The translations under genes were made by a program, and so were the position numbers. Shown in pieces: positions 6,808-12,756 of a stretch of DNA of 64,000 nt (its first letter is position 1; each line of letters opens with the position of its first letter). Under the pieces are notes generated by a model. That model did no database searches. It was not told where the DNA came from and was given only the letters and a program-made list of their open reading frames with translations. Origin of the DNA: Escherichia phage CMSTMSU; the sequence record MH494197.1; one strand, given 5' to 3'.

Positions 6808-7341
6808 CTACATAACCATCTTCGTTACCAAATGCGATTGACATTTGTGCATCAGTACCGACATATGACCATGTACGCTTGCCAGTATTTTTCTCAATGA
6901 AGTTCTGAATTTCAAGAACGATTTCATGACGAGAACTATTGGCAATGTTGTTAAGGTTAGCAACACCAGCAATAATTTCTGAACTGTCATTGATTCTTCG
7001 AATGTGCCATAGTCACCTAATACATATTGAACACCATCACAATGTAATGCATATGCATAATCCAAATCAGCAAGTGAATCACACTTACCACGGATTGGGC
7101 GTAGGGAAAGCCCTAGGCGAAGATAACGAAAGTATGTATTAGTATTTGTATTTGTCAACGTAATGCTCCTTAACAATATAAAAGTAGTTGCTGTTGTTGT
7201 CAAAAAGATGACTAATCCTTTGTAGACATTTACACCAATCTTGATTTGGCATATTTTATTCGATTTACAAGCCTCAGTCAATAACATTTTGTGCTCTTTA
7301 CTGAAAGTGTGGAAGAGTGGTTTTACATGCCACATCTCCAC
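6808..7341 (-). CDS. hypothetical protein, frame probably disrupted
   Basis: track ORF 177 aa with low-complexity stretch; overlapping ORF 6632..6844 in another frame. Confidence 0.3.
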   Translation of the reverse strand: MEMWHVKPLFHTFSKEHKMLLTEACKSNKICQIKIGVNVYKGLVIFLTTTATTFILLRSITLTNTNTNTYFRYLRLGLSLRPIRGKCDSLADLDYAYALHCDGVQYVLGDYGTFEESMTVQKLLLVLLTLTTLPIVLVMKSFLKFRTSLRKILASVHGHMSVLMHKCQSHLVTKMVM

Positions 7342-7401
7342 ACCATCTAGTACTGGAAATGTTCACTGAATTTGATCATTGATTCTTGCAAAAATAACCT
7401 G

Positions 7402-7707
7402 TTAGATTCGAATCATCAGACATGTAAGTTCGCCGAAGTCAATTACTTCGTCATGTGTTAACTTATCACTACGCTCTAGAACATTGATGATGAATGGTGT
7501 TTGACTATATAATTCAGCCAGAAACGCAACTTCATCAGATGTATAAGAATATCCCATAGGAACAACTTGTGCAGTCCAGTTTCCTAAAGTTTTGTTTGCA
7601 ATGATTGCAACCACCGTATTACCTTTGAATTCAACATGGATTGAACGGAAACCCGAATCCTCATTCTGATCCCAAAGTACTGGGTTAGTTTTAAACAGTA
7701 CTGACAT
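7402..7707 (-). CDS. hypothetical protein
   Basis: track ORF 101 aa. Confidence 0.4.
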   Translation of the reverse strand: MSVLFKTNPVLWDQNEDSGFRSIHVEFKGNTVVAIIANKTLGNWTAQVVPMGYSYTSDEVAFLAELYSQTPFIINVLERSDKLTHDEVIDFGELTCLMIRI

Positions 7708-7843
7708 AGTTATTTCCTCATGTATTTTATTACATCTTCAAATAGTTTAGTTTTCAGTGCATCATCATTACGTAGAAAAGTACTGAAGCTATTAAAATCT
7801 TCATTCTTGGCAAACTCACGCATCTGTGTGGAACTGTAGCGAC

Positions 7844-8238
7844 TTACATTTCGGTCAATTCCAGCTTGAACTGCCTTGATTGAACAAAAATTATATAACT
7901 TCCCATTGTACGTGTCAAGCGTTTTTGGAATGGTTCAAGTCTGTCTGAACCACATATGAAAAGAACATCTAAGTACTTTCCATCCAGTTCTCTCATTATA
8001 TCAAACAGATTATCTTCTGTATAGATATTTTCTTGTACAGATGGGTAAAATCCTTCTGTATAGTACATTTTCAGTTCAGGAGGTAATGGGTTTTGATGGC
8101 ATCAGTACTGGTACTAAGGAATATTTTCAAATCAGCATTGTACTGTTCTTGTAGTGCTTGAGCTTTTTCAAACACTAAACCATGACCTCGATGTACAGGG
8201 TTAATTCTTCCGAATGTCACTACGCATGTTTCTTTCAT
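7844..8238 (-). CDS. cytidylyltransferase-like nucleotidyltransferase (possible NMN adenylyltransferase), split into two frames
   Basis: N-terminal piece 8071..8238 reads MKETCVVTFGRINPVHRGHGLVFEKA (G-x-F-x-P-x-H-x-G-H signature), then a stop and continuation in ORF 7844..8068. Confidence 0.5.
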
Positions 8239-8311
8239 ATGTTCTTCATCACCTGACCAATAGATTTAAGATGGTTGATTTTAGCTGGAGTCAAATACTT
8301 ATCCAGTACTA

Positions 8312-8760
8312 TTAAACAACTAGGGAATGGAGCACTGTCAGTCTTTTATCTGGTTCTTCAGGGATACCGAACTTTAAGCGACCTTTTATAAAACAAATAC
8401 AATCACAAACTTTCGCAGCATAATCCTGAAAGGCTATAGTATCAGTTCTTGATGGTACGAGAATCAGTACTGTAGCACCTTTGTTATATGCATCAACTGC
8501 CTTAGATAACCACGTTTTCAAATCACTGTACGGTGGGTTGAGCCACACGATATTGTTTCCCAGTCCTGTTCAAGTGAATTGTCTTCTGGTGTAAAGAACT
8601 TATCACACAATGCAGTTTCTTTGACACACGCTGCATCTAGTGTAAATTCCCAGAGTTCATCCAAATCTTCAAAGAAATCCTTTGGAGTAGTCCAGTTATC
8701 TTTTCCAGTACTGAAATGTACTGATTGTTTTTCTTCGAAGCATCCTTCTTCGACATACAT
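8312..8760 (-). CDS. Dam-like DNA N6-adenine methyltransferase (PF05869-like), frame-shifted
   Basis: WTTP, FTLDAAC, NPPYS, PSRTDT and KGRLKF motifs across overlapping ORFs 8518..8760 and 8312..8548; shift lies just before NPPY. Confidence 0.7.
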
Positions 8761-8772
8761 AATTTCCTTTGA

Positions 8773-9174
8773 TTATAGACAGTTAAGTACTATGTCATCA
8801 AAAGTACTACTGTCAATGTTGTATTCATATAAAAATTTAAAATGTGATCCATAACGCATCATCAGATTAAACTCTTCTTCAGTATTAAATTTGTAATCAT
8901 GAAGAGTTTCAAGGGTACATGTTAAACCTAAAAACTCAATAATTTCTGATGTTACATCATTTCCTGAATTGAAGTATTTAACCCAAACACATTTTCCTTG
9001 TGGGTTGAATTTTCTATATTCTCCTTCTAGTTCTCCATTGACGATATGTGCTTTCGCACTGATTAGATTATTACTATAACGCTCTTCGTAGTAGTTCCCA
9101 TAACGAGCTTTAAGAATTGTAGGCTTCTTGGTTGGGAATAACTTAATGGAAGTTAATTCAAAACCGCACTGCAA
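8773..9174 (-). CDS. hypothetical protein, possibly MORN/YwqK-like repeats
   Basis: 133 aa; NGELEGEYRKFNPQGKCVWVKYFNSGN resembles G-x-x-G-x-W-x-x-Y repeat pattern; weak. Confidence 0.35.
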   Translation of the reverse strand: MQCGFELTSIKLFPTKKPTILKARYGNYYEERYSNNLISAKAHIVNGELEGEYRKFNPQGKCVWVKYFNSGNDVTSEIIEFLGLTCTLETLHDYKFNTEEEFNLMMRYGSHFKFLYEYNIDSSTFDDIVLNCL

Positions 9175-10038
9175 CTCTTTGATGTACGAAATACATCCTT
9201 TTCTTTAATCACAACAAAACCAGTAAAATTCTCGGTCTTGTTTCTGATTTTCTGAATCAACAAATTCTAGTGTTTTATAAGTGACGCTTTTAGATTTTTA
9301 ATAAATGACATCATTATTCCTATGGAAACATCAATGACTGTACATGGCGTTGACTTCATCAACACCAGTCGAATTATACACGCTTCGCATGTCTAATTCA
9401 ACGAAAGTACTATGATTTGTTTTAATTAATATTGACGGGTTTGCTTGAGCATATTTCATCCCCAGAAAGAACAAAAAGTTTGACGCTGGTGGCCTTCACA
9501 TAGTTCATATCACGAATTCTCTTACGAGGCGAAAGCGGGTTGCTCTGTTTCTCTCTATCGCGGTTCTTGTAGCAACGGTCGTCGGTCTTAAACATCCCGA
9601 CACATAATACAAATACCATATGACCAGTACTTGTATTTGATTTCACGAATTTTGGACGCAACTATTTTGTATAAATTACGACCGCAAATTTCTCATGAAA
9701 TCTCCTTAGATAATTGGTAAGGTGCGATCCTTATATGTCTATCGAGGAACTCTCTTTATCCTATTGGAGTTCTTTATACAGCCGCATTGCCGTGAGTGGT
9801 TCAAACTATGCCATCATCTAACGGGTTTCATTTGCTGTTCGTACTGAAAGGACTACTCATCTACCCTCTACTTTTCGAGTGGATTAGGCTTTAATCATTT
9901 CCATATGGAACCTTTCAGGATTAAAAAAGGCGACAACATATTCTGCTGTCACCTTACATTATATCATAAACTTATGGTATGTCTCAGTTGTATTCTGTTT
10001 TTCAGTGAAATTAGTTAAGATATCTGCACTTAAGCTTC

Positions 10039-10830
10039 TCATAACCTCAATCTTACTTGGCATGAACCTGTGCTTGTTTTTACATACAACTCATCATCTT
10101 CAATGAAAGATGTGAACATGAATACCATATCTTCACGTGGAATTGAGAGAATATTACAGTTTTCATTTTCAGCAACAGGGGAATCATTGTAGTACTTAGA
10201 GAATGCAGTACTTTGACGACCGATTATGATAGAATTTCGGATTAGAAAATTACTACAGTACTGAAAATCTTTGTAGTACTTGTCAAGGATATATGGCATT
10301 ATCGCTTCTTTCACTTCTTCATATCCATTTGAACTATCAATTGCAGTACAATAATCTTCTCGGTCTTTATTCCCTCGATGATTATCAAACTCGTACTCAA
10401 AGAATAAATTTTCATTTAATGAATTATTTGAACCAACTGATCCACTATAGTATGATTTTCTATCATTCATTCGATCATCGGGGCATGATGCATACATAGA
10501 AATGTCATGTGTTGACGTACCGATATAAATTTTCTTAGTAATGTGATTGTACGCGATGTAATCATAATCTTGTACTCCAGTGAGCATTAACTGGAACATC
10601 AATTCATCAGGAACATCAATTAACGGGTACTCAAACTTCGAATATCTACTACGACAGAAATTCTTTTCAAATGCTCGATATGCGATGAAATCTTTTAGGT
10701 TTGTAATAGATTCATGCTCATGTGTATTACTTGTGCGTACATTGACATTAGTAGACGAGCAATACCCTTCAGATTCTTCTGCGTAGTCATAATAACCCTT
10801 ACTGTAGTCAACGATTAGATAAAGTTTCAT
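10039..10830 (-). CDS. hypothetical protein (263 aa)
   Basis: long clean minus-strand ORF; GGAGAT SD upstream; no motif recognised. Confidence 0.5.
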   Translation of the reverse strand: MKLYLIVDYSKGYYDYAEESEGYCSSTNVNVRTSNTHEHESITNLKDFIAYRAFEKNFCRSRYSKFEYPLIDVPDELMFQLMLTGVQDYDYIAYNHITKKIYIGTSTHDISMYASCPDDRMNDRKSYYSGSVGSNNSLNENLFFEYEFDNHRGNKDREDYCTAIDSSNGYEEVKEAIMPYILDKYYKDFQYCSNFLIRNSIIIGRQSTAFSKYYNDSPVAENENCNILSIPREDMVFMFTSFIEDDELYVKTSTGSCQVRLRL

Positions 10831-10840
10831 ATATCTCCAG

Positions 10841-10872
10841 ACAAAAAGGACGAGATATTATATCCCGTCCTT
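10841..10872 (-). terminator. rho-independent terminator (minus strand)
   Basis: stem AGGACG/CGTCCT with 13 nt loop followed by U-run in the minus-strand transcript, between two genes. Confidence 0.45.
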
Positions 10873-10879
10873 TGGTTTA

Positions 10880-11184
10880 TTAGTGGCTTGCCCAGCAGTA
10901 AACAGGACGTAGATTTTCCATTGGGTTTACTTCAGGCTTCAGTACTGTAACACGAACTTCATACGGAGTACCATCTGCATGATGGAACGTTTCGTAATGA
11001 ATACTCTCAATGAAGGTTTCATATTCTTCTTGAGAACGTGAACGAACTGATGGGGAATATTTCTTTTGGTATCTGATTTTAGTGTAACACTTACTAGTTC
11101 TGATTCTTCACCATTTTCAAGTTTATTGAAATCGAACTCTGGTACACCTTCAAACATATCAAATTTCATTCCGTTGTCTTCCAT
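10880..11184 (-). CDS. hypothetical protein, apparent frameshift at a CCCC run
   Basis: track ORF 10939..11184 continues in another frame to a stop near 10880 if one C is added at aatattCCCCatcag. Confidence 0.4.
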
Positions 11185-11233
11185 TTTAAATTCCTTTTAT
11201 ATAATGTTAGTTAGATAGTTTTAATAAATCAGA

Positions 11234-11572
11234 TTAGATTACGTCATACGGTAGAGTACCGTGACGGAATTTATCAAGTTGTGCAAGAACTTCTTTACGT
11301 TCGACAATCTCTGGCACATCTTCTTGCAGTTGGTCACATACTTCAACGATGAAATCCCAATCGCTCTCACAACTCACACGTACTGCTTCAATTGTTTTCC
11401 AATCAGCACTAATTTCACCTTCAGGATTTACATACGAAGGCCATACCTTTCCATAGTCTTGTACTGATTTGTCGTTAAGAACACGAATAGCATTGAAAAT
11501 CTGTCCAGTACTGAAGTGTTTAGTATTCTTCATGTCTTCTAAGCAACATAGCTTAGGTTCACCCGACTTCAA
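11234..11572 (-). CDS. hypothetical protein
   Basis: track ORF 112 aa. Confidence 0.45.
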   Translation of the reverse strand: MKSGEPKLCCLEDMKNTKHFSTGQIFNAIRVLNDKSVQDYGKVWPSYVNPEGEISADWKTIEAVRVSCESDWDFIVEVCDQLQEDVPEIVERKEVLAQLDKFRHGTLPYDVI

Positions 11573-11687
11573 TCAGAAGTACACCACCAATAGCTTTTAG
11601 AACAGAACTTGTATTCATCTATATCTCCATTTATCAAAAAGATGTGAACATTATATCACAAGGAATTGTCATGTCCACAATATTTTA

Positions 11688-11978
11688 TCAAATAGTCAAA
11701 CTTTCGTGCCAGTTATTGAAATCGTTAATAGCCAGCATAAACATATTCTCATCATTAAATTCTAGAATATGTTCATTGTATAAGTAGCTAATGTACTTAT
11801 TACTACAGTGTTTGCTATTCATAATTAGCATTTCAACTGCACGTTCATACGAACATGGGCTGAGATACAATTTTGTTCCATCAGGATGCTCAATCTCCAC
11901 TGCACGTGGAATAAAACGTTCACCAGTATAAGGGATATACGGCTCTGTTTTGAAAATAAGTTTGAATTTAGTATCCAT
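11688..11978 (-). CDS. hypothetical protein
   Basis: track ORF 96 aa. Confidence 0.45.
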   Translation of the reverse strand: MDTKFKLIFKTEPYIPYTGERFIPRAVEIEHPDGTKLYLSPCSYERAVEMLIMNSKHCSNKYISYLYNEHILEFNDENMFMLAINDFNNWHESLTI

Positions 11979-12048
11979 ACCAAATCCTCCATAATTACAT
12001 TGTTTCTTTTATGTTGCGTAACATAGTATTAACTATGTTCATCTTCCC

Positions 12049-12756
12049 CTAACTTGAAGTAATATTCCAATTTATTAATAATATTACTTTTAATATCTCA
12101 AATATTTGATATTCATTTGTTTCGAAACTAAGTTCGAATTGGAAAGTATATAAATTGTTGAATAGATGTACCAACGATGCATCAGGTGATTCCATTGTAA
12201 ATGTGTAGTTGGCACGATAACCAGTACTAATCACCACTTCCGATGATTCACCTTTCATGGATATGTCAATATTATACATCATTGGGCGACCAGTTGCAAT
12301 ATCTTTCATTCGGAAGAATGCAGTACTGCGATACACAACACCATCTTCGGTAACCTTTTCTTGTATAGTGATATTTGAAACTTCACTCTCTTTGAATTTG
12401 GATTCGAATGAATGAATACGATTTGATTTTTCATCATCCGTATACATAGTGCATGTATATTTTCCAAAATCATCTCTAGATGTATATGATTTATCGCTGG
12501 CGGTTTTATAAAACGAAACCCCATTGATGTGTTCTTCTTTGTACATCATTGTGTCATTGGATTTGTAGTATGAACAATTAGGTGTTGAAAGAGATTCAAA
12601 ATTGTTCACATCATGACAGTAAGAAATAGAAGAATCGCTATACAGTACTACATCACGAATTGCAACTTCTTTTGAAGTACCTTTTGACAGAAATTTGAAA
12701 GTCATTGCATGGGAAGATTCTATATCCATCGTATGTATCTGATGTACTGATACCAA
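12049..12756 (-). CDS. hypothetical protein (235 aa)
   Basis: long minus-strand ORF. Confidence 0.5.
   Translation of the reverse strand: MVSVHQIHTMDIESSHAMTFKFLSKGTSKEVAIRDVVLYSDSSISYCHDVNNFESLSTPNCSYYKSNDTMMYKEEHINGVSFYKTASDKSYTSRDDFGKYTCTMYTDDEKSNRIHSFESKFKESEVSNITIQEKVTEDGVVYRSTAFFRMKDIATGRPMMYNIDISMKGESSEVVISTGYRANYTFTMESPDASLVHLFNNLYTFQFELSFETNEYQIFEILKVILLINWNITSS

Follow-up and report, generated by a model that had tools for sequence, protein, structure and literature searches.

Large, intricately folded RNA classes are very few in bacteria and their phages, and each of them has opened new biology or structural work. The closest described examples are GOLLD and ROOL. These RNAs (bioRxiv 10.1101/2024.12.08.627333) exceed 400 nucleotides (nt), contain numerous helices and pseudoknots as well as long unpaired stretches of invariant sequence, and lie on phage genomes and prophages with no associated protein gene and with a function that is not known. 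All of these traits recur in the element studied here, which occupies positions 9428-9986, on the minus strand, of a 64,000-nt stretch of DNA from Escherichia phage CMSTMSU (sequence record MH494197.1; this whole stretch is called the window). Judged by comparative sequence analysis, the element is very probably the gene of a previously undescribed family of large structured RNAs. It differs from GOLLD and ROOL in having no match in Rfam, in its hosts (Gammaproteobacteria, as opposed to Firmicutes or lake and rumen taxa), and in its occurrence as four to five ancient paralogues per genome, none of them beside tRNA genes and each headed by a phage-specific promoter.

A second point of comparison is provided by the long non-coding RNAs (lncRNAs) of phage PA5oct, which are transcribed from four loci per genome that are free of open reading frames (ORFs), measure 236-619 nt and all lie on the plus strand (PMC7318152). 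PA5oct belongs to a related phage clade, and four plus-strand loci per genome are also found for our element in phage 121Q. In addition, PA5oct ncRNA004 (619 nt; segment L049 1117-1735) is flanked by opposite-strand genes and ends in UUUCCUUCCC-AAAC-GGGGAGGAAAUCUUC, recalling the hairpin of a C-run and a G-run at the 3' end of our element. Homology searches with ncRNA002 and ncRNA004 gave E ≥ 0.18 in nhmmer and no match at E ≤ 10, with filters off, to the covariance model R1 described below. Taken as a whole, the locus is read here, with modest confidence, as a self-contained, stand-alone gene of a structured RNA that most likely acts in trans.

Conservation of the element among jumbo phages

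The element lies between two ORFs (8773-9174 and 10039-10830) on the minus strand, which carries the genes in this part of the window. Escherichia phage EC.P1 matches the region at 98.5% identity and phage 121Q (Asteriusvirus) at 87%; both are jumbo myoviruses of the RaK2-like type, whose genomes measure about 350 kb. At the same place, 121Q, GAP32 and Munch have unannotated gaps of 612, 714 and 688 bp, respectively. An earlier inspection of the window by eye, the sequence-only reading, had described the gap as poor in ORFs, visibly raised in GC content and about 860 bp long. Its scarcity of ORFs was borne out, as only short ones, up to 79 aa, lie between the two genes. The GC content is indeed raised, but modestly: it is 0.40 in the core (9424-9900) against a window mean of 0.342, which places the core at the 92nd percentile among windows of equal size, and 0.367 over the whole 860-bp interval. 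The length was inflated, because the leftmost ~140 bp are the 5' coding part of the neighbouring gene with a broken frame; the true non-coding stretch spans approximately 9315-10038 (~724 bp).

The RNA family came to light only because this gap was compared with related genomes. The core of about 470 nt (window 9424-9895) retains 65-76% identity in distant jumbo phages, namely GAP32, CBB, Serratia phage BF, Yersinia phages fHe-Yen9-03 and fHe-Yen9-04, Munch, 7t3, and phages of Erwinia and Xanthomonas. Taken across phage genera, the identity of the core is 65-80%; for scale, genome-wide average nucleotide identity between these genera is only 23-29% (PMC13070987). A blastn search with the core (query 250-720) returned 61-69 phage records at 65-97% identity, and every RaK2-like giant phage that we checked carries the RNA. 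By motif scans we located 36 viral loci, 60 metagenomic loci (mostly on contigs of 350-370 kb) and three contigs from bacterial assemblies, two of which are large (185 and 299 kb) and are probably phage. The hosts are Gammaproteobacteria, mostly Enterobacterales, plus Xanthomonas.

Most records contain four to five matching places, which in distant genera mostly bear no annotated feature. Such sets of diverged copies are present in Asteriusvirus, Mimasvirus, Eneladusvirus and unclassified relatives; the Klebsiella RaK2/K64-1 group has a single place by blastn. In 121Q, the four copies all lie on the plus strand, at 90.3, 192.8, 247.5 and 326.6 kb (nhmmer E = 1e-83 to 1e-168), and the one at 192.8 kb is syntenic with the window copy. 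Copies are 55-112 kb apart and co-oriented with most genes, and a single strand holds all of them in each genome where copies were located. A second copy in the window was sought with blastn, nhmmer and the covariance model (filters off), and none was found. When copies from all genera are clustered, those of one paralogue type group together; the duplications therefore predate the genus split.

The proteins flanking the four 121Q copies have no family in common, as judged by all-against-all BLASTP. Two HNH endonucleases, gp170 (91320-92108) and gp513 (246019-246630), which are 26% identical (E = 1e-5), lie ~0.5-0.9 kb from two of the four. A phage RNA polymerase sigma-factor gene stands directly upstream of one paralogue, copy 2, in 121Q (89267-90232, with the RNA at 90264-90799) and also in the distant RaK2, where the gene (segment L114 221-1117) precedes a diverged RNA copy at ~1160-1660. 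This adjacency may or may not be functional.

Covariation supports a pseudoknotted fold

To describe the structure, we used a curated model and 34 distinct copies, with pairs counted per domain (Table 1). The whole model comprises 84 pairs in 16 helices; these pairs are 95% paired across the copies, and 59 of them show compensatory double changes. In the 5' domain, 95.5% of positions in the model pair and 26 pairs have changed on both sides, whereas controls in which the register was slid reach 32-42%; the covariation score is 0.535, against 0.06-0.08 in slid registers. The 3' domain gave similar values: 94.7% paired (slid controls, 41-51%), double changes at 33 pairs, and 0.526 for covariation (slid controls, 0.09-0.14). 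For the 5' domain, RNAalifold predicted 31 pairs, 20 of them with compensatory changes.

Three pseudoknots, PK0, PK1 and PK2, have support. In PK2, a 12-bp hairpin pairs through its 7-nt loop with a strand that lies about 110 nt further downstream, and all seven pairs of PK2 covary. Throughout the RNA, invariant sequence blocks alternate with helices of variable length, and a 25-nt module (GUACAAUAUAG...CCGUCUAAAAUU) is carried by different helices in different paralogues, which is the behaviour of peripheral elements in large folded RNAs. H7 and the variable hairpins of the 5' part are poorly aligned. We also considered helices between the domains, pairing UAAGGGAG or the 3' box with other regions, and these found no convincing covariation support.

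We then condensed the 3' three-way junction into a covariance model of 120 positions, R1, which scored 106.7 bits on the window (E = 4e-18) at this one place. R1 recovered 64 further members in which the pairs are kept. Among metagenomic members, 58 further distinct and independent sequences keep the three helices of the junction.

Coding capacity and known RNA families

A decayed or misassembled protein gene spanning the gap could draw on the many frame-breaking deletions in the window, on an ORF of 79-82 aa in the closest relatives, and on small coding sequences (CDSs) annotated in WPEC3. The sequence-only reading had named a decayed gene as one option, beside a non-coding RNA and a regulatory region, and had stated that a continuous ORF restored by read correction would refute its observation; error-free relatives contain no such ORF. 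Among the 34 homologues, the longest ORFs have a median length of 70 aa and are inconsistent in position and strand, and in the alignments of both domains the indels between homologues are not multiples of three. Neither PHROG nor Pfam gave a match, and the helices carry compensatory changes. A protein gene is thus extremely improbable here; across the core it is refuted, and the idea applies to 9175-9314 alone, where what looks like decay is an assembly artefact in the neighbouring gene.

The doubtful ORF at 9422-9661, the only one that the sequence-only reading had listed in the gap, did not hold up as a gene: it is present in the closest orthologues only. Searches of Pfam and PHROGs with this ORF and both flanking genes yielded nothing beyond families of unknown function. 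A small ORF following UAAGGGAG, or one beginning at GGGGGGAUG, was rejected because its frame is not kept in homologues. CDSs for hypothetical proteins, on either strand, have been annotated inside the RNA gene in WPEC3 (CDS567-570; segment L001 2137-2710) and in RaK2 (ORF245; segment L114 1487-1693). They are almost certainly spurious, and the RNA thus also bears on annotation, since several GenBank records have such CDSs over it.

Comparison with known RNA classes was also made. ARAGORN detected no tRNA or transfer-messenger RNA (tmRNA) gene in the window, in agreement with the earlier failure to fit a cloverleaf, and the tRNA and Infernal scans that had been suggested turned up nothing meaningful. 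When the whole window was searched by cmscan against all 4227 families of Rfam 15, a set that took in group I and group II introns, RNase P, tmRNA, 6S, GOLLD, ROOL, HEARO and riboswitches, there were zero matches at the gathering score. At E ≤ 10, the gap and ten loci gave scattered weak matches to small RNAs and small nucleolar RNAs, none of them common to the window and nine other copies. Likenesses to RNase P CR-V, to the R/S elements of group I introns and to the hammerhead motif CUGAUGA were backed by no model score. We found no description of the family in the full-text searchable literature or in Rfam 15. Among the options raised for the gap, that of a non-coding RNA is strongly supported by conservation, covariation and a promoter of its own.

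Promoter and ends of the predicted RNA

A motif of the form TGRRAC-N17-(TG)nTATAAT is located upstream of nearly all 34 aligned copies. It belongs to a phage-specific 'divergent RpoD-like' promoter class, which has been reported with the -35 sequence TGAAACG in CBB and GAP32, mostly before DNA-synthesis genes (PMC5259590), and the plus strand of 121Q contains 17 matches to the divergent RpoD-like motif.

The sequence-only reading had noticed an imperfect hairpin with a U-run in the gap. This hairpin is real: on the minus strand, a stem-loop at 9955-9927 is followed by a T-run. The upstream gene has its intrinsic terminator here, outside the conserved RNA fold. Its stem, with five G-C among the 12 pairs, is positioned ~84 nt past the stop codon of ORF 10039-10830; one terminator-like site was found where 0.3 were expected in shuffles, and the GAP32 and Munch records annotate a terminator at the corresponding place. 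Only the syntenic copy-1 orthologues have this terminator, the other paralogues being without it. The hairpin begins 3 nt past the -10 box of the RNA promoter, an overlap kept in GAP32, Munch and relatives, and the predicted RNA start (~9951) therefore falls inside the 5' arm of the terminator. The predicted RNA would run from ~9951 to ~9428 on the minus strand and measure ~480-520 nt, with both ends predicted.

At the 3' end, terminator-like hairpins are found in many copies, though not in all, and at two alternative positions; by comparison, nearly every copy has the promoter motif before it. In 11 of the 34 copies, a canonical terminator hairpin, T1, precedes the 3' box by ~75 nt, and H7 with a U-rich tail is found in three more, although the pairing of H7 is only partly consistent in the alignment and is tentative. 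Some paralogues have a further terminator ~150 nt downstream, as in the endonuclease-VII-adjacent copy of CBB and GAP32, where it follows the 3' box by ~150 nt. The C-run/G-run hairpin varies on one side only, and in 121Q both GGGGGGATG and CAAAYCYCGTCA are restricted to the four RNA elements. Relative to WPEC3, the 3' hairpin of the window lacks CCCTGCGG, probably through an assembly error.

Relation to origin transcripts and to cis-acting leaders

The layout invites comparison with two kinds of transcript whose effect is tied to the DNA that encodes them. ColE1 RNA II and the middle-promoter R-loop origins oriF and oriG of T4 provide models for a replication-origin transcript, in which each element would be one of four to five origins in a ~350-kb genome, and a persistent RNA-DNA hybrid near the G6 run and 3' box would prime the leading strand. 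Our element likewise would give a promoter-driven RNA of ~500 nt with a G-run, occurs several times per genome, as in T4, and uses the class of promoter found before DNA-synthesis genes. Its four to five copies are dispersed and co-oriented, the near-invariant G6 run and the 3' box are conserved as sequence and not as pairs past the terminator, the phage has a T4-like replisome and RNase H, and a mobile island with the whole unit (see below) could get replicated by an infecting phage. The RNA itself fits less well. It is far more conserved and pseudoknotted than the origin RNAs, and three covarying pseudoknots and ~150 invariant unpaired nucleotides would be unneeded in a primer; the origin transcripts of T4 are not known to be conserved structures. 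Moreover, an efficient-looking terminator precedes the G-rich element in several paralogues. In 121Q, the cumulative GC skew simply mirrors how the genes are oriented and shows no inflection at any of the four loci; it gives no origin signal and cannot discriminate between an origin RNA and a trans-acting one. An AT-rich unwinding element is not distinguishable from the background of 34% GC. We regard an origin transcript as unlikely, though it is the main rival of a trans-acting RNA.

The alternative of a cis-acting regulatory RNA takes HK022 put and EAR as models. The RNA would then be a large leader that directs processive antitermination, or a gate for read-through at H7/T1 in response to a phage or host factor, and would set the transcription of the long co-oriented gene blocks downstream. 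As in put and EAR, a strong promoter stands immediately before the folded RNA, and terminators and long operons come after it. Nearly every copy follows such a promoter, the RNA is co-oriented with the downstream blocks, and a terminator lies inside the conserved unit; at GAP32-type copy-1 loci, the next gene shows no evident promoter of its own, and on an E. coli island three co-oriented genes come after the RNA. The size of the RNA argues otherwise, because known antitermination RNAs measure 70-120 nt and an RNA of ~500 nt is four to seven times larger. In the window, the downstream gene has a promoter of its own, and on the island the RNA and the next gene are ~700 nt apart, with unrelated sequence in between. 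In addition, the genes around the conserved paralogue next to endonuclease VII run on the opposite strand in 121Q and CBB; this paralogue points into them, ends at a predicted terminator of its own and therefore behaves as a stand-alone transcription unit. A cis-acting leader is, in our estimate, distinctly unlikely.

A complete copy on an E. coli genomic island

Among 5,426 complete E. coli genomes, two contain a complete copy of the RNA, as do at least seven further contigs; a search of plasmids gave no match. The strict motif would miss variants like the island copy (GATATGAGAGAAAC), and the bacterial distribution is therefore probably underestimated. The copy resides on a 10.8-kb island inserted between ffs and ybaA, as in the chromosome of E. 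coli LR-29-1 (NZ_AP027515; segment L115 4850-15650) and in segments L117-L123. The island encodes a tyrosine integrase, split by IS3 in LR-29-1 and intact in segment L117, together with a serine recombinase, three unknown proteins and the PADLOC candidate defence systems PDC-M45 (DuOB, DUF488, with mSLOG/DUF4326) and PDC-S16. From its phage-type promoter to the 3' box the RNA unit is complete (R1 E = 9e-19), and it is the only part of the island that is similar to phages; its best match, at 80.6%, is an Eneladusvirus paralogue. Jumbo phages contain no homologues of the two unknown proteins, of 303 and 257 aa, that flank the RNA. Unannotated island DNA on both sides of the RNA (L115 8300-8620 and 9940-10030) is rich in short GTAC-containing repeats (AGTAC, GTACC) and also carries ATTATCGATCGTT in tandem and inverted repeats; the latter may be iterons or sites at which a protein binds.

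The position of this copy beside PDC-M45 and PDC-S16 raises the question of whether the RNA belongs to bacterial defence, for example as an RNA antitoxin or regulator, with the phage copies serving as neutralising decoys. Phage pseudo-ToxI, directed against ToxIN, offers an analogy, and several diverged paralogues per phage could match different variants of the target. However, the family is carried overwhelmingly by phages: 69 jumbo-phage records stand against 2 of 5,426 complete E. coli genomes and no plasmid. The phage-type promoter and the Eneladusvirus affinity of the island copy suggest transfer from phage to island, and paralogue lineages have been kept across phages of different host genera, unlike the products of a fast arms race. 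We consider counter-defence mimicry very unlikely.

The island could also be viewed from the other side. If the RNA were a component that RaK2-like phages need for replication or expression, whether in cis or in trans, it would be a target, and the island copy could be a decoy or a hijacking device. This proposal is speculative and unlikely as it stands. If it were true, a small mobile element would sense, starve or parasitise an infecting jumbo phage, an RNA-based satellite or defence relationship that would be new for jumbo phages, and the RNA would form a novel class among large pseudoknotted RNAs, one that might be catalytic or assemble with itself.

Proposed mode of action

As opposed to a role linked to an origin or exerted in cis, action of the RNA in trans is proposed tentatively, on the basis of sequence comparison. 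What favours it is how much of the sequence is invariant and unpaired, together with the pseudoknots, the existence of a stand-alone paralogue and the absence of any linked protein gene. The RNA would be transcribed along with the DNA-synthesis genes from the same class of promoter, and would end at the H7/T1 terminator or else read through to the G-rich hairpin and 3' box. Once folded, the stand-alone RNA might bind a putative conserved partner as a ribonucleoprotein subunit, a scaffold or a decoy, and its long invariant unpaired stretches may serve as contact surfaces. The unit is evidently portable, having remained intact from promoter to 3' box on the E. coli island.

Several points weigh against this account. 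None of 500 shuffles reached the observed percentage of paired positions or covariation score, but the shuffle controls are inflated, because the aligned sequences share ancestry and also served to derive the structure; the slid-register control is the more meaningful one. The folding energy of the single sequence is only modestly better than that of shuffles (z = -2.0). The 5' and 3' ends, abundance and timing of the RNA are all predicted, and its partner is putative. PA5oct is the only related phage with RNA sequencing, which defined its four lncRNAs (PMC7318152), and the two compared, ncRNA002 and ncRNA004, have no detectable homology to the family. Finally, the single strand of all copies, their conserved synteny and the promoter class common to replication genes would suit a role in cis. 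So would the order of a terminator followed by a G-rich palindrome conserved in sequence, and the fact that a mobile island carries the complete unit.

The comparative support for the candidate is unusually clean and amounts to 16 helices, three pseudoknots and ~100 distinct sequences. Its multi-copy, same-strand, syntenic layout, the promoter class of replication genes and its capture by an island with candidate defence genes suggest an important role in infection by a 350-kb phage. The RNA is present in the culturable E. coli phages 121Q, PBECO4 and phAPEC6 and is therefore accessible to genetics, RNA sequencing, pull-downs and cryo-electron microscopy.

Neighbouring features and assembly errors

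The features of the locus are collected in Table 1.

Table 1. Features in and around the RNA gene, in window coordinates
Feature	Position	Strand	Basis or remark
Promoter of the RNA gene: -35 TGAGACA (9986-9980), 17-nt spacer, TG-extended -10 TATAAT (9963-9958)	9958-9986	-	Consensus scan, 10/12 with TG
Intrinsic terminator of upstream gene 10039-10830: 12-pair hairpin and T-run	9920-9955	-	Terminator scan
5' domain of the RNA	9702-9918	-	Alignment A2: 35 pairs, 8 helices
PK0 pseudoknot, in the loop of a small hairpin (9856-9841)	9918-9911 with 9851-9844	-	
P2 hairpin, conserved GAAAA(N)GUA loop	9882-9864	-	
P3, enclosing P4	P3: 9838-9834 with 9782-9778; P4: 9824-9821 with 9793-9790	-	
P6 and P7	P6: 9772-9747; P7: 9733-9718	-	
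Invariant UAAGGGAG	9709-9702	-	UAAGGAG in window
3' domain of the RNA	9504-9701	-	Alignment A3: 49 pairs, 8 helices
P8, optional GUACAAUAUAG...CCGUC module	3' domain	-	
P9, 12-bp hairpin; its 7-nt loop (9624-9618) pairs with 9510-9504 to form PK2	9637-9606	-	
P10 and PK1	P10: 9602-9580; PK1: 9576-9572 with 9543-9539	-	
Three-way junction of P12, P13 and P14	P12: 9562-9558 with 9515-9511; P13: 9555-9531; P14: 9529-9518	-	
H7 hairpin (GNC...GCGUC), then U-rich tract; the core RNA probably ends or is attenuated here	9470-9497	-	Alignment A3, terminator scan; tentative
Conserved 3' tail: C-run/G-run hairpin UUCAUUCCCC-UGC-GGGGGGAUGAA and 3' box CAAAYCYCGUCA (9445-9432)	9428-9471	-	Near-invariant in A3
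Doubtful ORF, 79 aa, TTG start	9422-9661	-	Chance ORF within RNA gene; no PHROG match
Sigma-70-like promoter of downstream protein gene, TTGAAT-17-TATAAT	9373-9401	-	Consensus scan, 10/12 matches
5' coding part of downstream gene (phrog_16210, homologue of 121Q gp416), outside the RNA	9175-9314	-	Three-way alignment and translations against WPEC3 and 121Q; PHROG match

The promoter of the downstream gene is placed between the 3' box of the RNA and the start codon, an ATG at ~9314. The product of this gene has 181-203 aa in WPEC3 (98% identical to the window) and in 121Q; in the window copy, three homopolymer deletions break the frame. Elsewhere in 121Q, a stretch of ~2 kb at 135194-137161 (gp265-gp266) is also without an annotated gene and is unrelated to the RNA family.

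A comparison with WPEC3 over 5.2 kb (7200-12420) shows 30 substitutions and, in the window, 28 deletions. With few exceptions, the deletions are losses of 1 nt in homopolymers or of 2-3 nt at CCAGG/CCTGG (Dcm sites), a pattern typical of an unpolished nanopore assembly, which probably extends across the whole window. Three genes near the element are artificially split in the window: the gp416 homologue (8773-9314), a Dam methyltransferase gene (8312-8760) and a cytidylyltransferase gene (7844-8238).

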